Shown: one piece after another, positions 11,879 to 25,148 of the stretch
Layout of the letters: each line of letters opens with the position of its first letter
Numbering within the stretch: position 1 is the stretch's first letter
Translations under genes and position numbers: made by a program
Origin: an uncultured Gammaproteobacteria bacterium
GTDB taxonomy: Bacteria > Patescibacteriota > Patescibacteriia > Magasanikbacterales > JBBTXJ01
Assembly: GCA_964610305.1 (NCBI GenBank)
Contig: CAZSVL010000001.1
Span: 174,781-232,002, forward strand
Direction: 5' to 3'
DNA: 57,222 nucleotides
Notes under the pieces: model-generated
What the model was told of the DNA's origin: nothing
Databases searched by the model: none
Seen by the model: only the letters and a program-made list of their open reading frames with translations

Positions 11879-11964
11879 AGTAGATACGATTGTAGCACAC
11901 TTTGTGCGATAATCGGGAGCTGGGCAGCCTTGCAGCGCATTTTTGTTTCTCGTATGATAGATAT

Positions 11965-12249
11965 ATGAAAACAAACATGAATAAAGAAGATTTTAAGAAG
12001 TTGTTAGATGAGGCTTTTGGATTGCGCAAGGAGTACGGAGACAAGCATGGGATTAACACTGCGTTGCGTCATATTACTGATTCCACAGAGCGCAGGGATC
12101 TTTTTGTGGCTATAGATAAGGAATTTAAAAAGGCTGATGCAGAAGCAGCGGAGATCAAACGTGCGGTTGAGCACGATAGGATTTCAACGTTGTATGAAGA
12201 TGCAAAAGCTCATGAGATGCGAATCCCACGTGATAGCCTTCCTGGTTAG
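11965..12249 (+). CDS. Hypothetical protein
   Basis: Charged helical ORF; upstream in-frame extension overlaps the divergent gene, so ATG 11965 chosen. Confidence 0.6.
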   Translation: MKTNMNKEDFKKLLDEAFGLRKEYGDKHGINTALRHITDSTERRDLFVAIDKEFKKADAEAAEIKRAVEHDRISTLYEDAKAHEMRIPRDSLPG

Positions 12250-12296
12250 TAAGATATTTTTGTCTCAACGTCTTCTCAGTCGGAGGTGAAAAATAT

Positions 12297-12821
12297 ATGA
12301 GTGAAAAAACAATGACACTTCAAAGAGTGAGTAGAGTGAGTTTAGTAATTTTTATGGCGGTCGCTGTTATGCTTGTTTTAGCAACGCCTGTCTCGGCTGA
12401 AGAGGGAAAAGCTAAAAAAGAGTATTTTAAGAAAGATGGGTATCATCTAAAAGATAAACGTTTTTTTAAGAAGCACAAGAAATTTAAGGCACGTTGGAAT
12501 CAGATGTCTAAGGGGGATATACAAGAGCTGAAGGCCAAGCATACAAAATTAAGAAAGCAGCGAAGGGCAGAATTTGAGTCATTTGTAGGTAAAAGTAAAG
12601 AAGAGATCAGAAAAGCACGAAAAAGTGGCACGTCTGTAGGAGAGTTGCTTGAGCAAAGCGGGAAGACGCAAGACGATGCTCGGCAGTTTTTGGAAAATCG
12701 TGCCGAAAAGAAATTGAATCATGTAAAAGAGAAAAAGGACATTTCTGATGAAAGGGAATTAAAAATAAGAGAAAGAATGAAAGGATTTGTGCAGAGAATG
12801 CTGAGTAAGTGGTTTAAGTAA
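12297..12821 (+). CDS. Hypothetical secreted basic helical protein
   Basis: Signal-peptide-like N-terminus ending PVSA-EE, Lys/Glu-rich body, terminator follows. Confidence 0.7.
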   Translation: MSEKTMTLQRVSRVSLVIFMAVAVMLVLATPVSAEEGKAKKEYFKKDGYHLKDKRFFKKHKKFKARWNQMSKGDIQELKAKHTKLRKQRRAEFESFVGKSKEEIRKARKSGTSVGELLEQSGKTQDDARQFLENRAEKKLNHVKEKKDISDERELKIRERMKGFVQRMLSKWFK

Positions 12822-12828
12822 TACAGAT

Positions 12829-12858
12829 AAAAATAGCGCTTAGTTAAGCGCTATTTTT
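12829..12858. terminator. Bidirectional intrinsic terminator
   Basis: Perfect 13-bp inverted repeat AAAAATAGCGCTT-AGTT-AAGCGCTATTTTT. Confidence 0.85.
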
Positions 12859-12959
12859 GTATCTTCTGTCGCCATTTTGTGTATTAAGTTAAGGCGCTTT
12901 TTTTAGAAATATCAAAAAATTAAGCTTAATTTGGCTAAGACTAGCCACAAAACTGCGTC

Positions 12960-12988
12960 TTGACAAATTCATTTTTTTATGGTAAAAA
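12960..12988 (+). promoter_or_regulatory. Possible sigma70 promoter of the PspA island
   Basis: TTGACA-17 nt-TAAAAA with TG extension; -10 imperfect. Confidence 0.45.
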
Positions 12989-13064
12989 AGGGGTCAACAA
13001 AGCGCAAAAAAATAGGGCGCCTGTTGCGTTCCTTACAATACATCACTCAAAAACAGGAGACACC

Positions 13065-13760
13065 ATGAGTGAAGAGCAAACAGCCAAGAAGTCGTGGACG
13101 GCCAGCTTTGGAAAAGGACTGTCCAATCTCATCTTTGAGGATGACAGTAGCTCTGAGCAGGCTCTGGATCTGGATGATCTAGATTTTGACGATGACGACG
13201 ATTTCCATCCTACTGCCGCAATTCCCGTAGAGGGTTCTGAGCAGGAAGGTGAGCCAGTAGATGAGCGTGGGCAGAACAGCATTAACGCTCAGTTCCCGGA
13301 TCTGTATGCCAATATGGGTCTGCAGGCTGATGCAAATACGGATACGCTTCTGAATACTTTTGATGGCATGAAGGCCATGGATGAAACAGCGCGTGGTCAG
13401 GCAATGGGCGCCATGATTGGTGGAATGCAGGCGGATGTTACGCGCACCCGCATGATTCTTGCCAAGCGCAGCAAGTGCCTTGAGTTTGTGGTAAAGGCGC
13501 AGCAGCAGGCTGTGGCCAAGAAGCAGGCGGCACGTACGCAGGCTTTGGCTTCTTCAAAGACCCAGGCCGATGCTCAAGTAGAAGCATTTCGCAAGCAGAT
13601 TGCAGAGGTTGAGGATTCGCTTGCCGCTCAGGTGCAGGATGATCAGAGCAACACCAATACGGAAAATGCCGCCTTGCGTGGCATGGAAATCCGTATGAAC
13701 ACCGAAATTGAGCGCATGGCTGCGCTTGATAATTTCTTTAGCTCGCAAGAGGAGGGGTAG
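13065..13760 (+). CDS. Hypothetical protein, acidic N-terminus and coiled-coil C-terminus
   Basis: SD AGGAG before ATG 13065; stop abuts the pspA-like start. Confidence 0.8.
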   Translation: MSEEQTAKKSWTASFGKGLSNLIFEDDSSSEQALDLDDLDFDDDDDFHPTAAIPVEGSEQEGEPVDERGQNSINAQFPDLYANMGLQADANTDTLLNTFDGMKAMDETARGQAMGAMIGGMQADVTRTRMILAKRSKCLEFVVKAQQQAVAKKQAARTQALASSKTQADAQVEAFRKQIAEVEDSLAAQVQDDQSNTNTENAALRGMEIRMNTEIERMAALDNFFSSQEEG

Positions 13761-14477
13761 ATGGACTGGTTAAGGAATCTCTGGCGCGGCATCATGCGCG
13801 TCTTGGTTACCAAGTCAGCCGAGGCTGCACCTGAGGTAACCATTGGTGGCATGATCGCCAAGCGCAAGGCGCAGCGAAAGGACATCATTAATAAGGCCTC
13901 TAAGGTTAGGGGTCTGCTGAAGAGTACGCGGTCAAGGCATAAGGCAAAGAATGCTGAGCTGCAAAAGCTCAAGCGTGCACTTCAGAATGCCATTGCTGAG
14001 GGTAACAAGAAGGCCGGTTCTGTCATTATCCAGCAAGTCAAGATTCTTGAAGAGCTGGTAAATGATCTTGCCCAGGATGTAAAGGAGCTTGCTGCGGTTG
14101 ACAAGCAGCTTGTCTCTGACATCAAGGTCTTCAATCAGAAGATTCTTGACATGCAGTCCAAGCTCAAGGTCAAGTCTGCCCGAGCATCAAATGCGCGGAC
14201 GCAGCGTGAAGTCATGGATCAGGTTAGCGGTTTGGCTATTGAATGGGATTCTGAGGCCGAGCAAGCCGCATGGGACAAGTTTGATGCGGATATTGGAGCC
14301 GCTGAAATCGTGGCAGAGACTGATGGCGCTCAGCTTGAGCGTGAAGTGCGCCAGTTGGTGCAGGATGCAGAGGTTGACGCGGCCGGCGACGAGTTTGATA
14401 CTCTGCGCGCCGAGTTTGAGGCTTCTCAGGGAGTCTCTGAGGCCGCGTCCGGCGACAATTCTAGCAAGTCTGCTTAG
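13761..14477 (+). CDS. PspA/IM30 (Vipp1/ESCRT-III superfamily)-like protein
   Basis: 238 aa, amphipathic N-terminal helix MDWLRNLWRGIMR, long coiled-coil hairpin, ALQNAIAEGN motif position, C-terminal DEFDTLRAEF. Confidence 0.7.
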   Translation: MDWLRNLWRGIMRVLVTKSAEAAPEVTIGGMIAKRKAQRKDIINKASKVRGLLKSTRSRHKAKNAELQKLKRALQNAIAEGNKKAGSVIIQQVKILEELVNDLAQDVKELAAVDKQLVSDIKVFNQKILDMQSKLKVKSARASNARTQREVMDQVSGLAIEWDSEAEQAAWDKFDADIGAAEIVAETDGAQLEREVRQLVQDAEVDAAGDEFDTLRAEFEASQGVSEAASGDNSSKSA

Positions 14478-14503
14478 AACAAAAAGCAACGGAGGGAAAA
14501 GAT

Positions 14504-16381
14504 ATGGCTGGTAAGAAGCTTACCCCGGTAGCAAAGATTATTCTGGTGCTCATGGTTGTTGGCGCTGCTTATGGCAGCGTTAAGCTGTTTGCGCCTGATC
14601 TCATGGCAAAGGTGTTCCCCGAGAAGGCTGTATCGCAGTCTAGCGTTCCGCCCAAGGCGGATCTGCCTGAGCCAAGTGTAGCGGGGAACGACAGCGGCGC
14701 TCCACCGCAGGCAAACGCGCCAAAGCGTGGAGACGGAAGCTTTCCGGATGTAAGTGGCTACATTAGTAGCACGCCGGGCTGCTCCAGCGGTACTCAGGTG
14801 CGGTGGAAGCACTGGTACTGGAATACGCATAACGGTGTGATTTACGCCAATGGCGGGCCGGTCGCGAAGAAAGACTCACTCATGTGTAAGAACGGTGTGG
14901 ACCTGCGAATGTCCCGTGAGGACGAGGTTCCCAACCAGTTTGCAGAGATGGTCAAGTTTGCCGATGCGCTGAGCAAGGGTGATCCTAACCCCACGGTGGG
15001 CGCCCACTTTATCTCTCTGATGGGAGATGGCACGGCCGCGTTGCTGACGGAGCTCAACGAGAAGCTGGAGAAGTACGGGCCTGAGTATCGCGCTCAGATC
15101 ATTGGATCTGGCGGCTACTCTCGTGGTGAGGACTGCGTGATGGGGCCGCCCAAGTGGCGGGACAATCCTGAGACAGCTCGTGGCGGCCTGTGCGCTGCTT
15201 ACTTGCGAGACGGCGACTGGAACATTGGCATGAAGTGGCTTGGTGACAACGGGATCTGTAACAATCCGGATGAGCGGACGTACGATCCCAACTGTTTCAA
15301 CTGGGTCAACGCCGATGGTTACATTGACGCGGCACAGAAGTATGTAGCAGGCTATTGCGAGGATCGTGATGTGGTGGTCAACGGCCGGCGCACGGGCGAG
15401 AAGCGCAACGTCTGCATTGACTGCGTAGCCACCTGGACGCCGGGCGATAACATCGTTGCTGATAAGCGCGGTGGACTTGTCCGGATTGCCAGCACGCGCG
15501 AGTATGCCTTCCAGATGCCGCAGGCCATCATTGGTGTGCGCAAGTGGATGCGTGACAACCCTGCGGTGGTAGAGGGCATGCTGGAGGCTATCTTTAAGGC
15601 GAATCAGACGATTCGCGATAATGATAACGCCATGCGGCGTGCTAGCGCGCTTGCGGCGGTCACGTACAACGAGGCCAACGCAGATGCAGCGTACGTGTAT
15701 CGGTACTTTAAGGGTGTGACTGAACCGGATAAGACGGGTTTGCAGGTAGAGCGTGGAGGCTCTTCTGTTAACAACCTGGCGGACAACTGCAACCTGTTTG
15801 GTCTGCAGAGTTGCGCTCCGGGTTCTACGAGCATTTTCAAGCGCACCTATGAGGTGTTTGGAGATATCGTGGTTCAGCAGTACCCCAAGTTGGTGCCGCG
15901 CTACCAGCCCTACGCTCATGTTGTGGATACGAGTTACTTGGAGCGCATTGCAGGCAGGGTGAGCGGACGAGTTGCCGCTGCTGCGCTGCCTACGTTTGCG
16001 GCCACTGCTCCCGGAGCAGCGCCTACGCGTATGATCTCCAAGAAGTCATGGCGGATTAAGTTCAAGTCTGGGTCTGCTGGATTTACGCCGGCGGCCAAGA
16101 AGGAGCTCAACGCGCTGTTTGATGATCTGGTTATCACCAGCACGCGGGTTGAGGTTCACGGTCATACGGATAACACCGGCGTGGCACGTGAGAACCTAAG
16201 GCTCTCTGAAAAGCGTGCGTTTGCCGTTAAGAAGTGGTTGGAGAAGAAGTCTCCGACCAACTTCCCGCAGAACCGTGTAAGCGTGTTTGCGCATGGTCAG
16301 AGCAATCCGGTGGTTGCCAATAGTACGGCTGCCAATAAGGCAAAGAATCGCCGTGTAGAGATTGTGATGCGCGCTAACTGA
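14504..16381 (+). CDS. Membrane-anchored substrate-binding protein (NMT1/SsuA-like) fused to OmpA-like peptidoglycan-binding domain
   Basis: N-terminal TM, Pro-rich linker; C-terminal GHTDNTG...NLRLSEKRA...NRRVEI; adjacent ABC genes. Confidence 0.85.
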   Translation: MAGKKLTPVAKIILVLMVVGAAYGSVKLFAPDLMAKVFPEKAVSQSSVPPKADLPEPSVAGNDSGAPPQANAPKRGDGSFPDVSGYISSTPGCSSGTQVRWKHWYWNTHNGVIYANGGPVAKKDSLMCKNGVDLRMSREDEVPNQFAEMVKFADALSKGDPNPTVGAHFISLMGDGTAALLTELNEKLEKYGPEYRAQIIGSGGYSRGEDCVMGPPKWRDNPETARGGLCAAYLRDGDWNIGMKWLGDNGICNNPDERTYDPNCFNWVNADGYIDAAQKYVAGYCEDRDVVVNGRRTGEKRNVCIDCVATWTPGDNIVADKRGGLVRIASTREYAFQMPQAIIGVRKWMRDNPAVVEGMLEAIFKANQTIRDNDNAMRRASALAAVTYNEANADAAYVYRYFKGVTEPDKTGLQVERGGSSVNNLADNCNLFGLQSCAPGSTSIFKRTYEVFGDIVVQQYPKLVPRYQPYAHVVDTSYLERIAGRVSGRVAAAALPTFAATAPGAAPTRMISKKSWRIKFKSGSAGFTPAAKKELNALFDDLVITSTRVEVHGHTDNTGVARENLRLSEKRAFAVKKWLEKKSPTNFPQNRVSVFAHGQSNPVVANSTAANKAKNRRVEIVMRAN

Positions 16382-16394
16382 GTGATGTAGTTAA

Positions 16395-16430
16395 GTCCGA
16401 TCTGCCCAAGGGGGTGGATCGGACGTTTTT
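16395..16430 (+). terminator. Intrinsic terminator, followed by a second hairpin at 16431-16459
   Basis: GTCCGATC...GATCGGAC then GTTTTT. Confidence 0.7.
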
Positions 16431-16492
16431 CTTAGACCCGCACCAGGTGCGGAGCTAAGAATTTCAAAAATATCGTAAAAGAAGGAGGAAAC

Positions 16493-17281
16493 ATGAGAGA
16501 ACTAGCGCTCGCATGGATGCCAAACAAGGTTATCTCTGCCAAGACGTTCTGGCTGATCGCAACGGTGCAGGCCTTCATTGCGCTGCTAATTTGGATTAAC
16601 TCTCCATGGAAGGCACTTCCGGTGCCGCCAGAAGTGTGGAGGGCATTTGTCCATTTGTGGTTTGAAATGGGGCTCAGCCACGAGATTTACACAAGCTTTT
16701 TGCTGAATCTTGAGGCACTTGCCTTCACCCTGATTATCTCGCTGAGCATCTCGTACCTCACGGTACTGCCGGTCATGAGGCCCCTGGCACTTGCCATCTC
16801 TAAGGGACGGTTTCTGGGGCTTATGGGCCTGCCGTTTGTCTTTACGCTGATGTTTGGCGGAGGGCATAATCTAAAGGTGGCACTGCTCACCTTTGGCATG
16901 ACGGTTTTCTTTGTCACCTCTATGGTAGAGGTGGTAGCCCGGATTCCAAAAGCGCAGTTTGATCACGCTAGAACGCTCCGCATGAGCGAGTGGCGTGTGG
17001 TCTGGGAGGTTGTAATTCTTGGCACGCGTCATAAGGCCATTGAGGTCTTTAGGCAAAACGCCGCCATTGGCTGGATGATGATTGCCATGGTAGAGGGAAT
17101 TTCTCGTGCCGACGGCGGCGTGGGAGCCCTGCTGCTTGCAGAAAACAAGCACTTTAAGCTGCCAGAGGTTTTTGCTATTCAGCTGATGATCCTCTTTGGA
17201 GGGTTGCTGGTTGACTACGGCATTGGCATCATTGAGCGCATTGTAAGCCCCTATGCGCGGCTCTCGTTGGAGCGGAGGTAG
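16493..17281 (+). CDS. ABC transporter permease (SsuC/TauC/NitT type)
   Basis: About 6 TM segments, EAA-like FDHARTLRMS, MIAMVEG...GGVG motif; SD AAGGAGG. Confidence 0.88.
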   Translation: MRELALAWMPNKVISAKTFWLIATVQAFIALLIWINSPWKALPVPPEVWRAFVHLWFEMGLSHEIYTSFLLNLEALAFTLIISLSISYLTVLPVMRPLALAISKGRFLGLMGLPFVFTLMFGGGHNLKVALLTFGMTVFFVTSMVEVVARIPKAQFDHARTLRMSEWRVVWEVVILGTRHKAIEVFRQNAAIGWMMIAMVEGISRADGGVGALLLAENKHFKLPEVFAIQLMILFGGLLVDYGIGIIERIVSPYARLSLERR

Positions 17282-17283
17282 TC

Positions 17284-18132
17284 ATGGCTGAATACGGCGG
17301 CGGAGCAGTGCTGGAACATGAGTGGAAGGATCCGCTCATTACTGTCAATGATGTAAACCTTAGCTTTGGCGATAACCATGTGCTGCGTGATGTAAGCCTA
17401 GAGATTCGCGATGTGGTGCGGCCTGGTCGTACCACCGGTCAGGTTGTGGCTTTGCTTGGTCCCTCTGGGATGGGCAAGACACAGCTTTTTAGAATCATTG
17501 CAGCGCTCAATAAGCCCGATTCTGGCATTGTGCTCGTGGGGCCTGAGCAGCAGCCCACCGATGTGGGGATGATTGGGATTGTCTCTCAGCATTATCCCCT
17601 CTTTAATCACCGCACGGTGATGGGAAATCTGTTGGTTGCCGGAAGACTCGCAGGGCTTACGGATCAGACAGCACGTGCTAAGGCTTTTGAGCAGCTGGAT
17701 AAGCTCAATTTGTCCCGGGATGTAGCAACCATGTATCCAGCGCCACTCTCTGGCGGTCAGCGTCAGAGGGTGGCGATCGCTCAGCAGTTCATGTGCTCAG
17801 ATCGTTTTCTTTTCATGGATGAGCCTTTCTCTGGCCTTGACCCAATCGCTTTGGACATGGTGGCAGCCATTGTAGAGGAAGTAGCAAATCTGGATGAGCT
17901 AAACACCGTAGTGGTCATCACCCATGACATTGGCTCTGCCATTGAAGTGGCAGATACCATTTTGCTTCTGGGTAGGGATCGTGATGAGGAAGACCAGCCC
18001 GTGATGGGAGCGCGGATCCAGCGCACGTATGATCTTATTGAGAGAGGTCTTGCGTGGCGCAGCGGCATTAGGAATGAGCCAGAATTCTTTAACCTGCTGC
18101 GCGAGATCAACGCGGATTTTCATCTTATGTAA
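17284..18132 (+). CDS. ABC transporter ATP-binding protein (SsuB/TauB type)
   Basis: Walker A GPSGMGKT, LSGGQ signature, FMDEPFSGLD, H-loop ITHD. Confidence 0.93.
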   Translation: MAEYGGGAVLEHEWKDPLITVNDVNLSFGDNHVLRDVSLEIRDVVRPGRTTGQVVALLGPSGMGKTQLFRIIAALNKPDSGIVLVGPEQQPTDVGMIGIVSQHYPLFNHRTVMGNLLVAGRLAGLTDQTARAKAFEQLDKLNLSRDVATMYPAPLSGGQRQRVAIAQQFMCSDRFLFMDEPFSGLDPIALDMVAAIVEEVANLDELNTVVVITHDIGSAIEVADTILLLGRDRDEEDQPVMGARIQRTYDLIERGLAWRSGIRNEPEFFNLLREINADFHLM

Positions 18133-18137
18133 TAGTA

Positions 18138-18178
18138 GCGAGGCCTAGCACTAGGCTAGGCCTCGCGCTTTCTTTTCT
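18138..18178 (+). terminator. Intrinsic terminator
   Basis: Perfect 12-bp stem GCGAGGCCTAGC/GCTAGGCCTCGC followed by T-rich tract. Confidence 0.75.
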
Positions 18179-18251
18179 CTGATTGTGCATTAGGTGCATA
18201 GCCAGAGCCCAGAAAGCTCAGAATAGTTCATTAAAACTCACGGAGGGCGCA

Positions 18252-19277
18252 ATGGAGGGCGAGCAGCTCTTAAAAAAGGGAATAAAACGCGCCGTCACAT
18301 CCACGGGAAACGTGGTAACGGGGGCGCTAGCGCTAGGAGCATCACTTGCTCTGGCCAATCCCCTGCCCGCCATTTTGTGGGGGTTGGGGTCAGCGGTTTA
18401 TGTAGGAAGCAGAGTTACGTCTGCTAGCTACGCGCAGAAGATTATCAATGAAGAATTTGAAGCTGAAAAGCAGCGATCCGCAGCTAAGCATAAGGCTCTG
18501 CGCGCGTGGGTGCTTAAGACGCTTGATGAGGACCCGTTCTATAGCTGGATGGGTCATGGTCTTATGCCTCAGTACGGCAAGCAGTTTCTAGAGCTAGAGG
18601 CTACGCGCGATAGGATTGCTCGTCAGGCGCATGCACGCAAAGACGTGGCGTTTGGTCTTGAGAGCGATGTTCACAAGCAGATGAATCTGCTTTTGGCAGC
18701 CTATTTGCGCTTTGTTCAATCGCGTATTGTGTTTGTCCAGAAGCTCTCTGGCGTTAGGCTGGATCTGGATGAGCCCGTTATTGAGCCAGAGCAAGAGCTC
18801 TCGCTTCTTGACTGGGCAGCTCATCACCTCCTTGAGGTGGAGCAAGACGATTCGCAGGAAGAGTTTGAAGAGCCGGCCGAATATGACAGAACACCTCTTC
18901 CCAGTTTTGATTTGGATGCGCAACTGCGCTATCTAACGCAAAAACGGGATGCAAAAAAGCGTGCTAGTTCTCAAAATGGAGCCGCTGCAAAGATTACGGC
19001 GGGCCATGTTGAGATGCTTAACAGAAGGATTGCATTTCTGAAGGACATTGCAGCGCGTGATCAAAGGGCTACAGCTCAGCTGGAGGCATTGCCCGATGTG
19101 TTCTACTTCATGTTAGACAGGATTGGTTCCGCTCATGTGGATCCGTCCCAGATTACCTCTTACATGACTGATGTTGTTAGTCGTGTAGAGGCAGATCAAG
19201 AGTTTGTGGAAGAAATGACTCCGTCCTCCGATGACCTCATCAGAGGCATTGAGGAGGAGCAGCTTCTATCGCTTTAA
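18252..19277 (+). CDS. Hypothetical protein: N-terminal hydrophobic hairpin plus long helical domain
   Basis: SD GGAGG before ATG 18252; hydrophobic GALALGASLALANPLPAILWGLGSAVYV. Confidence 0.8.
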   Translation: MEGEQLLKKGIKRAVTSTGNVVTGALALGASLALANPLPAILWGLGSAVYVGSRVTSASYAQKIINEEFEAEKQRSAAKHKALRAWVLKTLDEDPFYSWMGHGLMPQYGKQFLELEATRDRIARQAHARKDVAFGLESDVHKQMNLLLAAYLRFVQSRIVFVQKLSGVRLDLDEPVIEPEQELSLLDWAAHHLLEVEQDDSQEEFEEPAEYDRTPLPSFDLDAQLRYLTQKRDAKKRASSQNGAAAKITAGHVEMLNRRIAFLKDIAARDQRATAQLEALPDVFYFMLDRIGSAHVDPSQITSYMTDVVSRVEADQEFVEEMTPSSDDLIRGIEEEQLLSL

Positions 19278-19279
19278 TC

Positions 19280-19305
19280 GCCCTAATGGAAACATTGGGG
19301 CTTTT
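19280..19305 (+). terminator. Hairpin/terminator
   Basis: GCCCTAATG-GAAA-CATTGGGGC then TTTT. Confidence 0.55.
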
Positions 19306-19319
19306 CTTTAGGAGAGACA

Positions 19320-21068
19320 ATGGAGCAAGCAGGATTCATTGAAGATATCCGCGTGCGATACGCGGCTGGACGTGAACGTTTGTTTATTTTGCATGGCAAT
19401 ACGGCAGATCTGTTTAGTAGTGCGGATGGTACGCTGCGGACACTTCCGGATCATTTGTTTGCACAGATCACTGGTGGTAAGCAAACAAACAAGATCTGGA
19501 TGCACTTTAGTGTAGACAGCGGTGTTCGGTGGATAAATGAGAAGGATGCGCAAGGCGTAGCTAGGCTGGGCAAGCTTGCAGCAAGTGAATCTGACGTACT
19601 TTTTACGCGCGATCCCTTGAATTGTCTTCGTCTTGTGAAGAACGTGTGCTCAAGGCGTGAAAAAGTGGCTGATAAAGCAGGTTCTGTGGTGCCGCTGCGT
19701 CTTGTCATGACAGATGCTCAGCACATTGTGCCGCAGTCTAGCTCTTCATTTATGCCAAAGGAAACACGAGAGATGCTTGTATTCCTGAAACGATTTGCGA
19801 GTGAGCCCTTCTACGATCAGACCGATACGTTGATCATTCTGGTTACCGACACACTCTCGGCAGTTCATGAGGAGCTGCGCGAGGCCGCGGTGTCAATTGA
19901 GCTGCTATCGCCGGATGAGGAGCAGGTTGGCGAGGATTTGATGCACGCTATTGCTCAATACGATACTGATTACGTGATAAATGATCTGGCAAACATGAAA
20001 GAATTGGCGATTGGATTGACCACTCGGCAGATTCAGAATGTGGTTGCGCAGACTAAGCACGCTGGCGTACCGTTATCCCCTGCTATTCTCTCGCGTCGTC
20101 GCAAGGAGTTGGTAAAGCGCTCTTATGGCGAGAATCTGGAGTTCCAGAAGCCTAGATGGGGTTTTGATGCGGTTGGTGGTGCTAAGACTGCGGTTGAGGC
20201 GCTTTCCTCTCTTGCACAGCTTCTAGCTAGTGGTGATCCTGACGTTCCCGCCGGTATCATCATGGCGGGGCAGAACGGTGTGGGGAAATCCTACATTGGT
20301 GAGGCGTTTGCTCATGAGGCTGGCATCAACGTGGTGAGTATTCCCCCGTTTAAATCTAGAGATTACGGCGGCACAGCGCGTGCGTGGAGTAAGATTGAGA
20401 CAGGTCTTAAGTCTTGCAGACGCATCATTGTGAAGGTGGATGAAGCTGATGCGCGTTTGGGTAAGCGCTCTGGCGATGTCCATGAGACTAGCAAAGAGCT
20501 TATCTCACGACAGCTTGAGTTCATCGGTGATCCAGCATATGTTGGTAGAATCTTCTGGATTCTGATGACCTGCCGACCTGATGAGCTTGCGCCAGACTTT
20601 AAGCGACCTGGACGATGTGACACGGTAATTCCGCTGTTTCCGATCCTTGATCAGGATGAGGCACTGGAGATTCTACGTGCTGTCATGAAGTTTCTGTCTA
20701 ATTCACGGGGATATAAATTTGACATGCCAGAGCTAGAGGTTGAGCATGAGCTTATGACTATGCTTATTGGTAAGACGGGTGGTGACATTAAAAAAATCCT
20801 GCGCAAAGCAAGAGTTGAATCTAAGCGCGATGGAGGAAGACTAATTACTACGCCTGATCTTGAACAGGTTCTTCGCAGCAGCTCTCGTACCAAGGCAGTT
20901 CCTGCCGCCTATGAGCTTCAACAGCTTGTAGGTATTGTAGAGGCGCTGGAGACGGGCAATGAAGAGATGATTCCGCCAGAAATCTGGAAGCAGCATCGTC
21001 TTGACATGCCGTCTAGCTTGACTAAATGCAATGAACGTATTAGAGAGCTTAGACACCTACTTGATTAA
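19320..21068 (+). CDS. AAA ATPase with degenerate N-terminal AAA-like module (Ycf46/SpoVK-like architecture)
   Basis: Walker A GQNGVGKS, Walker B VKVDEAD, SRH TCRPDELAPDFKRPGRCD; SD AGGAG. Confidence 0.88.
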   Translation: MEQAGFIEDIRVRYAAGRERLFILHGNTADLFSSADGTLRTLPDHLFAQITGGKQTNKIWMHFSVDSGVRWINEKDAQGVARLGKLAASESDVLFTRDPLNCLRLVKNVCSRREKVADKAGSVVPLRLVMTDAQHIVPQSSSSFMPKETREMLVFLKRFASEPFYDQTDTLIILVTDTLSAVHEELREAAVSIELLSPDEEQVGEDLMHAIAQYDTDYVINDLANMKELAIGLTTRQIQNVVAQTKHAGVPLSPAILSRRRKELVKRSYGENLEFQKPRWGFDAVGGAKTAVEALSSLAQLLASGDPDVPAGIIMAGQNGVGKSYIGEAFAHEAGINVVSIPPFKSRDYGGTARAWSKIETGLKSCRRIIVKVDEADARLGKRSGDVHETSKELISRQLEFIGDPAYVGRIFWILMTCRPDELAPDFKRPGRCDTVIPLFPILDQDEALEILRAVMKFLSNSRGYKFDMPELEVEHELMTMLIGKTGGDIKKILRKARVESKRDGGRLITTPDLEQVLRSSSRTKAVPAAYELQQLVGIVEALETGNEEMIPPEIWKQHRLDMPSSLTKCNERIRELRHLLD

Positions 21069-21075
21069 AGAGACG

Positions 21076-21102
21076 CCGGCTACAACAGGTAGCCGGTTTT
21101 TT
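21076..21102 (+). terminator. Intrinsic terminator ending the island
   Basis: CCGGCTAC-AACAG-GTAGCCGG-TTTTTT. Confidence 0.85.
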
Positions 21103-21116
21103 GTTATAATAAGCTC

Positions 21117-21503
21117 ATGCAAATTCACAAGGACTCCCCTGCCCTGCGTCTTACCTACTTTTGGCTGGGTCTTATAGCAACATTTTCGTATCGCATTATA
21201 ATCGTACTCAATTTTTACGAGCCTATTTTTGTTAAAATTGCTTGGTATGTTGGAACTATAGGATTCCTAATTTATTTTTGGAATCGCTACCGCGTAATAA
21301 AGCAGTTTGACAGACTCATTGAAGAGCAAAAATTAGTTGCGGCTGTAAAAAAGGCAAAGGGAATCAGCTCTAACCAAAAAAAGGCACTGGCCTTTATTGT
21401 ACAAACGCTCGACACCACCAAAGCGCAAATAAACTACGAGGCTATATTTATTTTATCCGGATTGGCACTTGTGGCCGGAATTATTCTGGATTTTGTTGTT
21501 TGA
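21117..21503 (+). CDS. Hypothetical membrane protein
   Basis: 128 aa, three hydrophobic segments. Confidence 0.7.
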   Translation: MQIHKDSPALRLTYFWLGLIATFSYRIIIVLNFYEPIFVKIAWYVGTIGFLIYFWNRYRVIKQFDRLIEEQKLVAAVKKAKGISSNQKKALAFIVQTLDTTKAQINYEAIFILSGLALVAGIILDFVV

Positions 21504-21604: not shown

Positions 21605-22408
21605 TTATAAGTCAAGTTGCCTCAGGTTATAGACGGTTGCAGCAAGAAACACGGCTCCGGCCAATAAAAATACCAACAAATGTTCTCCAGGCACGCCGTG
21701 ACCCATAAGAATTTCCGTTGGTTTGCCGTAGTATTTTAGAAATGAAAGGAAATATATCTTTTCGGCTGCCTCGCTTAAAGATGCCAGCACATGAACAAGA
21801 TATGATCCAACTAAGAATGCGGCACACGCTCCGTATACTTTTGAGACACTCTTAGACAAGGACGACAAAAAAGCAGTAAATGAGAGGAGCGCAAAACTCA
21901 TGAGCAAGGAGAGTATAAAAAAGTCTGATAATCCAACGCCAACCATCTTCTCGCCCAAAATTTTTGCAGACACCATTACCGAAAGAAGCGAGATTCCAAT
22001 TATGGCTGCCACCATCGCATACAATGCTATAAAGGAGACTCTAAACATGGTGCTACGCTTGCATGGGAGCGAAAAAGTAAATTCTGCAGTGCCGCGATCC
22101 CGCTCCCCCGCTAAAATGCTGGCTCCAAAAGAAAAAATGAGCAAGCAAAGCAGTATCAGATACATTAAAGAGAAATACTCTGCAGACATGAAACCTGCAA
22201 AAGTGGTAAAGGTATCGCCGCTAATGCCAAAAGCCTCTACAAGAGCCGGCGGATATGCGGAAAGGAGCTCTTCAAATTTGTCGCGATTCTCCTGTACCGC
22301 CGGAAAAAAAGCTGCAATCATTGCAACATAGACAACAGAAATAAGCGCATAGATAAAAAATCTTCCTTTGTTGTTTCTGATGATTTTTTTTAATATAGCC
22401 AGGGTCAT
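21605..22408 (-). CDS. ABC-2 type exporter permease
   Basis: AGERDRGTAEFTFSLPCKR motif, about 6 TM segments. Confidence 0.88.
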   Translation of the reverse strand: MTLAILKKIIRNNKGRFFIYALISVVYVAMIAAFFPAVQENRDKFEELLSAYPPALVEAFGISGDTFTTFAGFMSAEYFSLMYLILLCLLIFSFGASILAGERDRGTAEFTFSLPCKRSTMFRVSFIALYAMVAAIIGISLLSVMVSAKILGEKMVGVGLSDFFILSLLMSFALLSFTAFLSSLSKSVSKVYGACAAFLVGSYLVHVLASLSEAAEKIYFLSFLKYYGKPTEILMGHGVPGEHLLVFLLAGAVFLAATVYNLRQLDL

Positions 22409-23304
22409 GCGGTGTCTGCTTTATAATATTTAAGAAAAACATCCTCCAGATCAGGGTATGCGGCGTTTAAATCTATCACTTCATATGAATGCAGAGCCTT
22501 TATAAGTTGACCCATAGCTGCGCTCTTTACCAAAAGCTGAATTGATCGCGGTTTGGATTGCAGAATTTTTACGCCCTGGATGTTTTGAAAATCAGCCAGA
22601 GAGTAGTCTTCTGCAAATACTGCCGTTACGTTTTTGTGGCGCTTGTGGCGCAAGTCTTGCACAGTCTGTACATCTATAAGGGTTCCGCTTCTTATGATGC
22701 CGGCTCTGTCGCACACTTTTTCTACCTCAGGAAGGTTGTGGGATGAGAAGAAAATGGTTACGCCTTCGTTTTTTAAATCTGCAAGCAGAGAATATAGCTC
22801 TTGCTGAGAGAGCGGATCCAAACCAGATGTTGGTTCATCTAAGATGAGCAATTCTGGCTTGTGAAATAAGGCCAATAAAATACCGATTTTTTGCTTGTTT
22901 CCCTTAGATAGCTTATTTACGGGAGAGTTCAGATTACAGCCTAACCGCTCAACGAGCTCCGCGGTGCGCTGCTTGGATACGCGTTTTTTGTAAAAAGCGC
23001 CTGCGAATTGCAAAAGCTGCTTACCGTTCCAATGAGGATACAGATGATCATCCGATGGTAGATAGCCAATTTTTTTCAAAATCTCAGGATAATTCTCTGA
23101 CAAAGATTTGCCAAAAATACGTATCTCCCCTGCCGTTGGCAAAAGCGTATGCATGAGCAATCTAATGGTAGTAGTTTTGCCAGCACCATTTGGCCCCAGA
23201 AAACCAAAAATCTCTCCAGGCATTACTTTTAGATCTAGTCCCTCAACACCACATACTCTTTTGTAATATTTGGTGAGTGCCTCAGTTTTTATAACCGGTT
23301 TCAT
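22405..23304 (-). CDS. ABC-2 type exporter ATP-binding protein
   Basis: GPNGAGKTT, LSKGNKQK, LDEPTSGLD, SSH. Confidence 0.93.
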   Translation of the reverse strand: MKPVIKTEALTKYYKRVCGVEGLDLKVMPGEIFGFLGPNGAGKTTTIRLLMHTLLPTAGEIRIFGKSLSENYPEILKKIGYLPSDDHLYPHWNGKQLLQFAGAFYKKRVSKQRTAELVERLGCNLNSPVNKLSKGNKQKIGILLALFHKPELLILDEPTSGLDPLSQQELYSLLADLKNEGVTIFFSSHNLPEVEKVCDRAGIIRSGTLIDVQTVQDLRHKRHKNVTAVFAEDYSLADFQNIQGVKILQSKPRSIQLLVKSAAMGQLIKALHSYEVIDLNAAYPDLEDVFLKYYKADTA

Positions 23305-23336
23305 AAGGTCAGCTTAGCAGAATACTGCAAATCAGT

Positions 23337-23358
23337 AAAAAAAGACCCCGAGGGGTCT
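23337..23358 (-). terminator. Intrinsic terminator after second pilB
   Basis: AGACCCC/GGGGTCT stem with A-run on plus strand. Confidence 0.7.
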
Positions 23359-23363
23359 GAATT

Positions 23364-25088
23364 TTAGCTTACGCGCAAAACTTCCTCTAGTGTGGTGAGT
23401 CCTTGCGCGAATTTTTTTAATCCGGCCTGGCGGAGTGTCTGCATTCCCTCTTTGATTGCAATTTCAGAGAGCTCTGCAGCGCTTAAACCGTTGTTTATTG
23501 CTTCTTTGATGGGAGAGCTCATAGGCATGACTTCATAGAGGGCTACGCGTCCGCGATAGCCGGTGCCGCTGCAATGTCTGCATCCAGAGCCGCTTTTTGT
23601 AGTTGCATTTTCAAAGTCTTCCTCTGTCATCCCCGCGGCAATACAATCGTCTTTTTTCCACGATTCTTCCGTTAGGCAATGCAGGCAGTTTCTTCTCACC
23701 AGTCTCTGCGCCACCACAAGTCGTACCGCACTATTGACCATATGACCTTCTACACCAATGTTGGTAAGGCGCGTAATGGTAGAGGGAGCATCGTTAGTGT
23801 GAAGCGTAGAGAGCACCATGTGGCCCGTGAGAGCTGCCTTAATAGCAATCTCTGCCGTCTCATAATCTCTAATCTCTCCCACCAAGATAATGTCGGGATC
23901 TTGTCTCAAAAAAGATCTCAGCGCTTTTTCAAAATTCAATCCAATATCATCGTTCATTTGCATCTGAGAGATGCCATTTAGCTCAAACTCAATGGGATCC
24001 TCTGCTGTGCAGATATTCTCTGAGATTTTATTAAGGTCCATCAGAGCACTGTAGAGCGTTGTGGTTTTTCCAGAGCCTGTTGGCCCCGTGACCAGCACCA
24101 TGCCCCACGGTGCATGCACGGCTTGCTTGAATCGTTTGTAGTCCTCCGGCTCAAAACCAAGTTTGGACATGTCTGTCTGCAGATTTTTGCGATCCAAAAG
24201 ACGCAGTACAGCTTTTTCTCCATGAGCAAAAGGAGCGATGGAGACACGGAAATCGCACTCTCTTTTGGTTTCGGGGATGGTGTATGGCATACGTCCATCT
24301 TGCGGGAGTCTCCGCTCAGCAATATTCAATTCACTCATGATCTTAATGCGTGAGACAAGCTGCGCTTTAAGATATTCCGGTAGCGTTTCAATCTCCTGCA
24401 TAACGCCGTCTATGCGGAATCTTACTCTCACGCGATCCTCAAAGGGCTCAATGTGAATGTCAGAGGCGCCGCGTTTGATTGCATCGGTCAGGAGCATGTC
24501 TACAATGGCTACCACGGGTTTAGCTTCTGATGATCTCTCAAGCAGGCCTTGATCCTCTGGGTCGGCTTGATCGTATTCTCCGCTTTGTTCAATTTCATCT
24601 AGGTGCGGGCGGAGTCCATCTGACAGTGAGTTTTTCTCGAGAGATTCGTAGAAGCGTTCAATGGCATCCTTGATTGCTCTGCCGGACGCCACAACCATCT
24701 CTATGGGCATGCCCGCTACGCTTATCATGTCATCAAAAACTTTTACATTGCCTGGATCGGCAAACGCAACAATAAGCGAGTCTGATCCTCTGGCGATGGG
24801 AACAACGTTGTGCTTTTCGCACCAGTGTTTTGGAATGGATCTGATGATATCTTCATCAGGAATTCCCATGTCATCAAGCGGTACGGTTGTCACGCTGTGG
24901 AAGTTTGAGAGAAATTCAACCAGATCTTCTTCTTTTATGACACGCATTTGTTCTAGTTTCTGTAAAAATGCGCCCTGCGGAATTCCACCTTCAAGCAATC
25001 GCCTTAAGGTTGCCTCATCAAGCAGACCAGCGCGGAGCATCATCTCCGCTCTTGTGTTGTAAGATCTTTCCTCTGGCTTATCGCCCAT
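23364..25088 (-). CDS. pilB: Second PilB-type assembly ATPase (stand-alone)
   Basis: MshEN-like N-terminus, RRLPQDGR, GPTGSGKT, RQDPDIILVGEIRD, LHTNDA, CxxC pairs; SD AAGGAGG before ATG 25088. Confidence 0.92.
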   Translation of the reverse strand: MGDKPEERSYNTRAEMMLRAGLLDEATLRRLLEGGIPQGAFLQKLEQMRVIKEEDLVEFLSNFHSVTTVPLDDMGIPDEDIIRSIPKHWCEKHNVVPIARGSDSLIVAFADPGNVKVFDDMISVAGMPIEMVVASGRAIKDAIERFYESLEKNSLSDGLRPHLDEIEQSGEYDQADPEDQGLLERSSEAKPVVAIVDMLLTDAIKRGASDIHIEPFEDRVRVRFRIDGVMQEIETLPEYLKAQLVSRIKIMSELNIAERRLPQDGRMPYTIPETKRECDFRVSIAPFAHGEKAVLRLLDRKNLQTDMSKLGFEPEDYKRFKQAVHAPWGMVLVTGPTGSGKTTTLYSALMDLNKISENICTAEDPIEFELNGISQMQMNDDIGLNFEKALRSFLRQDPDIILVGEIRDYETAEIAIKAALTGHMVLSTLHTNDAPSTITRLTNIGVEGHMVNSAVRLVVAQRLVRRNCLHCLTEESWKKDDCIAAGMTEEDFENATTKSGSGCRHCSGTGYRGRVALYEVMPMSSPIKEAINNGLSAAELSEIAIKEGMQTLRQAGLKKFAQGLTTLEEVLRVS

Positions 25089-25148
25089 GATCTCCTCCTT
25101 GCCTATTTCTACGATACACAGCGGTAGCGGCGCCGTCAAGATGCAACC

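Follow-up and report, generated by a model that had tools for sequence, protein, structure and literature searches.

The stretch analysed here, referred to as the window, comprises 57,222 nucleotides of contig CAZSVL010000001.1 (assembly GCA_964610305.1). Two adjacent genes in it (18252..19277 and 19320..21068) encode a 341-amino-acid (aa) membrane-hairpin protein, here referred to as TMh341, and a 582-aa AAA ATPase, here referred to as AAA582. Together they form the distal part of a tightly spaced seven-gene operon on the + strand (13065..21068), in which the gene order is coiled-coil protein, PspA, TauA/NMT1-type binding protein with an OmpA domain, permease, ABC ATPase, hairpin protein and AAA ATPase (Table 1). 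An earlier note on this DNA, made from the sequence alone, had proposed that the last two genes encode a membrane adaptor and an unfoldase acting on a PspA-like polymer. The two open reading frames (ORFs) delimited in that note were recovered at the same positions, and their starts are supported by ribosome-binding sites at Shine-Dalgarno distance (GGAGGG for ATG 18252, AGGAGA for ATG 19320). A longer TTG start at 18183 for the hairpin-protein gene was rejected, as homologues have N-termini that do not agree with it and its position falls inside the T-run belonging to a terminator-like hairpin.

Table 1. Features of the seven-gene operon and its intergenic hairpins, in window coordinates.
Feature	Position	Strand	Description
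231-aa protein, operon gene 1	13065..13760	+	Acidic, probably disordered N-terminal half; helical/coiled-coil C-terminal half
PspA238	13761..14477	+	238-aa divergent PspA/IM30 protein (ESCRT-III superfamily); ATG abuts the stop codon of the preceding gene
Binding protein, 625 aa	14504..16381	+	N-terminal membrane anchor, TauA/NMT1-type solute-binding domain, C-terminal OmpA-like peptidoglycan-binding domain
Terminator-like hairpin	16395..16424		Operon gap after the binding-protein gene; G+C-rich, with T-run
ABC importer permease, 262 aa	16493..17281	+	BPD_transp_1 E 8.4e-4; SaoP-type permease E 1.4e-6; several hydrophobic segments
ABC transporter ATP-binding subunit, 282 aa	17284..18132	+	ABC_tran E 3.9e-24; many NCBIfam importer ATPase models, best E 1.1e-39
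Terminator-like hairpin	18138..18166	+	Gap between ABC ATPase and hairpin-protein genes; 12 pairs, 9 G-C, then T-run; consensus match only
TMh341	18252..19277	+	341-aa membrane-hairpin helical protein; hydrophobic hairpin ~aa 18-56 (~18303..18419)
Terminator-like hairpin	19280..19301	+	Between hairpin-protein and ATPase genes; consensus match only
AAA582	19320..21068	+	582-aa classical AAA ATPase; Pfam PF00004 at aa 313-437, E 2e-16
AAA582 D1, aa 1-272	19320..20135	+	Degenerate AAA module; HGNxxD at the P-loop position, without Walker A lysine
AAA582 D2, aa 273-520	20136..20879	+	Classical AAA module; pore-loop Gly350
D2 Walker A	20268..20291	+
D2 Walker B	20424..20450	+
D2 second region of homology (SRH)	20568..20621	+	Cys418, Arg429, Arg432
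AAA582 C-terminal helical extension, aa 521-582	20880..21068	+	Conserved stretch in close relatives, stop codon next
Terminator-like hairpin	21075..21097	.	Terminator-like on both strands; likely operon 3' end

By its sequence, AAA582 is a two-tier classical AAA ATPase in which the first module (D1) is nucleotide-dead and the second (D2) has all catalytic and pore residues. The protein contains a single G....GK[ST] motif, at aa 317 (GQNGVGKS), and IIVKVDEAD, TCRP and KRPGRCD follow at aa 369, 417 and 428; these are the motifs that the earlier note had quoted. Conservation was counted over 55 distinct family members. The Walker A lysine is present in 55/55, the Walker B aspartate in 54/55 and its glutamate in 55/55, and the two SRH arginines (R429 and R432) and the pore-loop glycine (G350) are likewise found in 55/55. 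AAA582 therefore has the features by which classical AAA proteins are recognised, namely Walker A and B, two SRH arginines and a pore loop ending in glycine, and to judge by these residues D2 keeps everything required of a threading ATPase. The Walker B motif had been described as unusual; it is a canonical hhhhDE with one lysine in the strand, and close relatives carry VLVDEAD. The SRH had also been described as a variant. The sensor-1 residue at its start is usually asparagine (TNRP), which the Afg2 alignment, spanning the SRH, also shows; AAA582 lacks this asparagine and has Cys418 instead. The cysteine is real, but the site is variable in the family, being occupied by S in 20, C in 15, N in 15 and A in 5 of the 55 members; Thr417 before it is kept in 52/55.

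The reading of the N-terminal region as an AAA-like module without Walker A held up in both structural and profile comparisons. An AlphaFold2 model built with 15 homologues (predicted local distance difference test, pLDDT, 84.5) has strand-helix alternation over aa 20-272 followed by a four-helix lid, and with Foldseek the whole model aligns to two-ring p97/Cdc48/Rix7 chains over ~570-630 columns (E about 1e-20). Comparison of the D1 and D2 profiles of the 55 members with hhalign gave a probability of 95.5% (E 1.4e-8, 134 columns); in this alignment PLRLVMTDA is matched to the Walker B strand of D2 and TLIILVTD to its sensor-1 strand. Since this profile homology places D1 strands on the Walker B and sensor-1 strands, D1 is best described as a dead AAA module, and the HGNxxD at its P-loop position is itself conserved (H in 42/55, N in 43/55, D in 52/55). 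In the C-terminal extension P552 is invariant in the alignment, and the model has helices at 528-544, 553-558 and 566-581.

The clade placement of AAA582 was read solely from hidden Markov model (HMM) and phmmer scores. Its top solved relatives are Afg2/Drg1, VAT, NVL and Cdc48/p97 (E 5e-22 to 1e-15), with FtsH lower, and no Vps4 was present in the best 60 of 194 solved relatives. The NCBIfam ranking runs from CDC48 (53.5 bits against a cut-off of 802.65, E 1.3e-14) through PAN and FtsH to CdvC (16.7 bits, E 0.0026), all far under their cut-offs. The best matches in both sequence and fold are type II AAA proteins with two stacked modules (Cdc48/p97/VAT, Afg2/Drg1, Rix7/NVL). One degenerate tier is also a feature of Pex1/Pex6 (D1) and NSF (D2). 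AAA582 differs from the type II proteins in that its D1 lacks the whole P-loop lysine motif and in its conserved 60-aa C-terminal helical extension, and from Cdc48/p97/VAT in that no match was found (Pfam) to CDC48_N, the double-psi barrel that serves those proteins as N-terminal substrate/adaptor domain, and the modelled chain opens almost directly with D1. As with Vps4/CdvC and ESCRT-III, the gene for a protein of a polymer-forming superfamily stands beside that for a classical-clade AAA protein with intact pore loop and SRH, and the logic would be alike, ATP-driven extraction of subunits, which for AAA582 is a proposal. However, AAA582 lacks the MIT domain by which the N-terminus of Vps4 binds ESCRT-III tails, lacks the C-terminal domain of Vps4 as well, and is built of two AAA tiers, not one; judged on these comparisons it is an analogue, not an orthologue, of Vps4/CdvC. 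The same genome holds another classical AAA protein of 928 aa (G000 contig C7, ~12797..13789, locus L035/L046), which matches only D2 of AAA582 (E 7.2e-24), has a counterpart in a same-order relative and is unrelated to the operon.

On its model, TMh341 is held in the membrane by a short hydrophobic hairpin and is helical in its remainder, in agreement with the hydrophobic hairpin and long helices noted before. A Kyte-Doolittle scan gave one hydrophobic stretch (aa 20-42), and the model (pLDDT 68.7) has short helices at 18-34 and 38-56 with an Asn-Pro turn between them, followed by long helices; an acidic disordered linker (aa 178-218) lies amid helices that are predicted to be cytoplasmic. 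No match was found in Pfam, NCBIfam or PADLOC, and a word-indexed search returned just two relatives. A profile of 16 syntenic homologues searched against 1.84 billion representatives matched 605 of them at E<=0.001; with the threshold at 1e-10 the number was 266, and with 1e-30 it was 54. Of the 150 matches listed, 106 have lengths of 255-370 aa. Foldseek of the model against PDB gave nothing at E<=0.001, and a wide search with VIA gave unrelated helical proteins (best Z 8.4), so no fold was assigned. ESM Atlas returned unnamed clusters and, as nearest named cluster, the Rv2743c family at 0.85, which is a lead only. Like PspB/PspC of E. coli, LiaI of B. subtilis and PspM/Rv2743c of M. tuberculosis, TMh341 is a small membrane-anchored protein encoded beside PspA, but it is larger, with ~280 aa of predicted cytoplasmic helices. 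None of 107 family members (0/107) matched the Pfam families of PspB/PspC, LiaI and PspM at E<=0.01, and PF25587 (PspM) was not among the 19 Pfam families matched by any of them at this threshold. Complex prediction of AAA582 with aa 57-341 of TMh341 gave a score of 0.00 and a mark of 0.32, which counts neither for nor against binding.

The product of the second gene, PspA238, is the sole PspA-like protein found encoded in this genome. Alone it scores below the cut-off of PF04012 (E 0.0025, 17.9 bits against 33.9), whereas 15/15 members of its syntenic family match this model (best E 1.7e-36) and the family profile matches solved Vipp1/PspA structures (E 4.7e-34). By these family and structure matches, the gene at 13761..14477 is a member of PspA/IM30 (PF04012).

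To place the operon in context, related loci were taken from genome and metagenome collections and their ORFs were screened by phmmer and iterated profiles; the sets of loci overlap in part (L049 is the genome of L005), and related genomes are non-independent observations. The full seven-gene order was found in 3/3 metagenome contigs with enough upstream DNA (L036, L039 and L040), many Acidobacteriota genomes keep it, and it is conserved across phyla. A distant relative of the ATPase, full-length and 25-31% identical, is encoded at 19 genome loci. Ten of these have PspA, hairpin protein and ATPase in a row (nine labelled Acidobacteriota or Blastocatellia bins, one Heliobacteriaceae). One Polyangiaceae locus has coiled-coil protein, PspA, OmpA-domain protein, a 241-aa protein and ATPase, its OmpA-domain protein having no binding-domain match in Pfam. 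Four deltaproteobacterial loci among the 19 are without PspA and have a Redoxin/AhpC gene upstream, and the other four were too short or had no partner seen.

Co-occurrence with PspA had been put forward in the earlier note as a check on its proposal, and the outcome agrees with it: PspA is present at 13/13 fetched loci with the hairpin-protein/ATPase pair, in addition to the window, and the genomic outcome that the note had named as refuting, a pair often found without PspA-like genes, was thus not observed. In a wider sample of 301 genomes of the phylum holding L005 (labelled Acidobacteriota), the hairpin family occurs in at least 27, a minimum figure since weaker members turned up on subsequent local searching of genomes that had scored negative, and PspA directly adjoins the hairpin-protein gene in 23 of the 27. 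Where the PspA/hairpin-protein pair stands by itself, it is flanked by unrelated housekeeping genes. The ATPase type was found in 53/301 genomes at E<=1e-40, eight of these matches covering D2 only. Of 20 further ATPase loci, 13 have the ABC ATPase, 12 carry a hairpin-protein gene immediately upstream of the ATPase gene, and 11 have PspA, whose position lies past the fetched edge in four more; one locus (L080) has the PspA-ATPase pair alone. TMh341 thus belongs to a large Pfam-less family whose constant genomic partner is PspA, and the core of the arrangement is the PspA/hairpin-protein pair, to which the ATPase is accessory.

This type of operon has been described before, by comparative genomics and not by experiment. 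Ravi et al. (2024, mSystems) reported that bacterial PspA co-occurs with a protein of two AAA domains, the N-terminal one inactive, and proposed an ATP-dependent membrane remodelling comparable to Snf7/Vps4. In their Table S3 the order is given as X(s), PspA, PBPB+OmpA, transmembrane (TM) permease, ABC ATPase, TM+'Snf7' and inactive-AAA+AAA, and their example (OGG56892.1, Candidatus Handelsmanbacteria), compared here by its published description, matches the window operon in gene order and domain content at every position, the 231-aa first protein standing in the place of 'X(s)'. The window operon falls into this class, in order, and since Ravi et al. (2024) describe the same architecture it is a new member of an already described type. 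It differs in that the window copy is a GC-rich island in a 1.09-Mb genome and in that the Snf7 label of the hairpin protein was not reproduced here. A 2025 review states that a Vps4-like ATPase appears to be absent in bacteria, so that PspA polymer dynamics would be regulated by other means. As a parallel worth noting, Makarova et al. (2024) describe archaeal ESCRT loci with a ProX binding protein among their genes and, beside a PspA-like gene, a Vps4-like ATPase that lacks MIT. No experimental follow-up of this operon type was found in the open-access literature, subscription journals lying outside the search. New here are a Pfam-less hairpin family (605 representatives) whose constant neighbour is PspA rather than the ATPase, and the presence of the operon in a 1.09-Mb genome, as a GC-rich island that the relatives sampled do not have.

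Taken together, we consider it slightly more likely than not that the hairpin protein anchors PspA and that the ATPase remodels it, which is the best reading of these data; the operon may thus correspond, in bacteria, to the machine of ESCRT-III and Vps4 that remodels membranes. PspA238 would form ESCRT-III-type polymers at the inner face of the cytoplasmic membrane, where TMh341, both ends of its hairpin facing the cytoplasm, would act as its receptor or nucleator. AAA582 would assemble as a hexamer in which D1 provides a nucleotide-independent assembly and docking ring, a function that inactive tiers serve in other type II AAA proteins. D2 would then thread a flexible tail of PspA238, and possibly one of TMh341, through its pore and extract subunits, so that the polymer is turned over or reshaped in the way that Vps4 acts on ESCRT-III. 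The ABC importer and its binding protein, tethered to peptidoglycan, could either link remodelling with the uptake of solutes or fix the site to the cell wall. These receptor, docking-ring, threading-motor and solute-coupling or wall-tethering roles are suggested by the protein families and by analogy with Vps4.

Several observations weigh against this interpretation. The ATPase adjoins the hairpin-protein gene at 7 of the 27 loci only and is thus optional for the PspA/hairpin-protein pair; an ATPase-type match that covers D1 was found in only nine of those 27 genomes. Conversely, five of the 20 further ATPase loci are without any partner gene, three genomes have the ATPase with no hairpin protein at E<=1e-5, and at four deltaproteobacterial loci the ATPase family occurs without PspA, with a Redoxin/AhpC gene upstream. 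AAA582 has no MIT or other recognisable substrate-binding domain (Pfam, E<=0.01), and the sensor-1 cysteine, replaced even by alanine in 5/55 members, could mean slow or regulated hydrolysis. Terminator-like hairpins part the gene blocks, and therefore co-transcription of the seven genes is an assumption. As to the role proposed in the earlier note, the link to PspA stands, but because the ATPase seldom adjoins the hairpin-protein gene and occurs without it, TMh341 is better described as a membrane partner of PspA than as an adaptor of the ATPase.

The nearest alternative concerns the identity of TMh341. Ravi et al. (2024) annotate its family as divergent Snf7, and TMh341 would then be a membrane-anchored Snf7/ESCRT-III subunit that co-polymerises with PspA, the ATPase disassembling the mixed polymer; in all other respects this overlaps the best explanation. 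Its model is almost wholly composed of long helices, and E. coli PspA(1-144) (Z 7.2) and fly Shrub (Z 6.9) are among its structural matches, although both scores lie within the tool's noise band for helical proteins. The published label could not be reproduced here. None of the 107 family members matches Pfam Snf7 or PspA_IM30 (E<=0.01). Aligned by profile to the PspA family, the hairpin family gave probabilities of 2% and 0.9% (hhalign, no direct Snf7-profile comparison having been made), and profile searches of solved structures brought up nothing beyond designed coiled coils, ATP synthase subunit b and proteins of that kind. The Snf7 model, applied at E<=10 to five genomes, never fell on the hairpin-protein gene, and the window's own genome has no Pfam Snf7 match at E<=0.01. 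ESCRT-III proteins begin with their long hairpin, an order of helix lengths that TMh341 does not share. We regard a Snf7 identity as rather unlikely.

Two further explanations reassign the role of PspA. It could be a regulator or adaptor of AAA582, and not its substrate, that holds the ATPase inactive until membrane stress, as in the E. coli PspA-PspF pair; the freed enzyme would act on other clients, for example damaged membrane proteins or TMh341. Binding and inhibition of the AAA+ protein PspF by PspA is established (2025 review; PMC6003685). Members of the ATPase family are also encoded where PspA is missing, and their clients must therefore include more than PspA. AAA582, however, is a classical-clade AAA protein with pore loops and not an NtrC-type activator, no DNA-binding domain was found in it, and no feature seen here argues for inhibition; PspA polymers would, by analogy with Vps4, be a natural threading substrate, and regulation of this kind seems unlikely to us. 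We assign still less weight, considering it quite improbable, to the hairpin-protein/ATPase pair being a membrane-protein extraction or assembly device for the ABC importer and wall-tethered binding protein, with PspA a stress-protective passenger. Membrane-anchored AAA extractors such as Msp1 do exist, and the transporter genes sit between PspA and the pair and co-occur with the ATPase at 13 of 20 loci, but ten genome loci and L082 hold the PspA/hairpin-protein/ATPase triad with no transporter between, the L080 pair has neither hairpin protein nor transporter, and the hairpin protein tracks PspA, not the transporter.

A broader extension of the preferred reading, that of PspA anchored by TMh341 and remodelled by AAA582, is more tentative and, as a whole, doubtful. 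The hairpin protein could found a large family of dedicated membrane receptors for PspA and not be an ESCRT-III paralogue, the PspA/receptor module being a widespread but unrecognised Psp system to which ATPase and importer were added and which this genome gained horizontally. If true, the added ATPase and importer would turn a Psp module into an ATP-driven, ESCRT/Vps4-like remodelling machine, and the reduced-genome host would have gained the full version, possibly for membrane maintenance or for uptake of envelope material that it cannot make. 

In this operon class a PspA is paired with a classical AAA ATPase and a membrane protein that are both dedicated to it. For the remodelling of an ESCRT-III polymer by ATP in bacteria no candidate is more direct, and within the open literature it has been noted computationally only. 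Should AAA582 indeed remodel PspA, archaea and eukaryotes would not be the only organisms in which polymers of the ESCRT-III type are turned over at the expense of ATP. For a bench test, the seven-gene unit, the 107-sequence alignment of the hairpin family and residues K323, E375, C418, R429, R432 and G350 provide the material.

The C-terminal tails of PspA were surveyed in loci L002-L015, L041, L047, L052-L056 and L077-L080. In many PspAs encoded beside the ATPase a short motif stands ~10-20 residues ahead of the C-terminus, of the form [KR]T[LI]G (typically EKTLG) in 17/34 (L054 counted by hand) and of the looser form K[TSE][LIM]G in 27/34, read by eye from the tails. Neither form is present in 16 PspAs from loci with the PspA/hairpin-protein pair only, nine of which have a looser KQI[GAS]. 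The ATPase might recognise PspA by this motif, but as the two groups of PspA are separate lineages, kinship confounds the comparison. The PspA subfamily of the window has no such motif (14400..14477) and ends in G-K-x-[AV].

Two other arrangements of the ATPase gene were observed. At L078 and L041 the order is ATPase, coiled-coil protein, PspA, binding protein, permease and ABC ATPase, and no hairpin protein was detected within the fetched DNA. A deltaproteobacterial branch (L004, L007, L009, L016 and L019) has no PspA nearby; a Redoxin/AhpC gene lies upstream of the ATPase in four of the five (not L016), a Pfam-less 237/238-aa protein is encoded downstream of it in four, the L019 contig ending inside the ATPase gene, and a LuxR-type response regulator comes next in three (L004, L007 and L016). 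This looks like a different context of the ATPase.

The remaining operon genes have the following relatives. The 231-aa first protein has no Pfam or NCBIfam match, and ESM Atlas gave unnamed clusters only. Its homologues lie directly 5' of PspA in L036, L039, L040, L041, L012, L078 and L089, and the possibility that it is a second PspA was rejected (hhalign against the PspA family, 1.7%). The 625-aa binding protein has a hydrophobic segment at aa 4-30, a weak NMT1_2 match and an OmpA match at aa 520-616 (E 2.3e-19); OmpA is found in 12/12 members of its family and NMT1 in 7/12 (best E 2.3e-12), and the family profile matches the taurine-binding protein TauA (6ssy, E 1.5e-12). A defence-system reading of the locus was rejected, PADLOC having matched nothing but the generic MotB/OmpA domain of this protein. 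The permease gene is syntenic in L036, L039 and L040.

Terminator-like sites number 17 in the region, against 10.1 +/- 3.4 in shuffled sequences, and the four intergenic hairpins of Table 1 may set differing expression levels among the gene blocks. Among sequencing runs, none of RNA was listed as containing this DNA, and the single DNA run listed may be the source sample. The operon has a guanine-cytosine (GC) content of 0.525, compared with a genome mean of 0.458 (z = 3.45; 1.3% of 8-kb windows are as high). The GC-rich block, from ~13400 to 21000, coincides with the operon (0.49-0.60 per 600 bases, against 0.38-0.44 in the flanks), and GC drops to the genome level past about 21000. Two more regions of this genome are equally or more GC-rich (contig C4, ~3-10 kb, and contig C3, ~70-73 kb). 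The source genome is 1.09 Mb in size and 99.6% complete. The ATPase type was not found in 40 genomes of the same family or order and was found in 3/401 sampled genomes of the phylum, the window's own included; one distant homologue of the ATPase is named as from a Patescibacteria bin. We infer that this genome likely acquired the operon horizontally.

The limits of the operon were drawn from the same comparisons. A 128-aa membrane protein (21117..21503), the next gene, which has no counterpart at any related locus, and the upstream genes at 11902..12821 were both considered and rejected as parts of it, because they are without counterpart in related loci and lie outside the GC island or beyond hairpins. 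Directly downstream, on the minus strand (21605..25139), the translations as judged by eye indicate a permease-like ORF of the ABC-2 type, an ORF for an ABC ATPase and one of 591 aa that by its sequence features resembles a type IV pilus/type II secretion ATPase.

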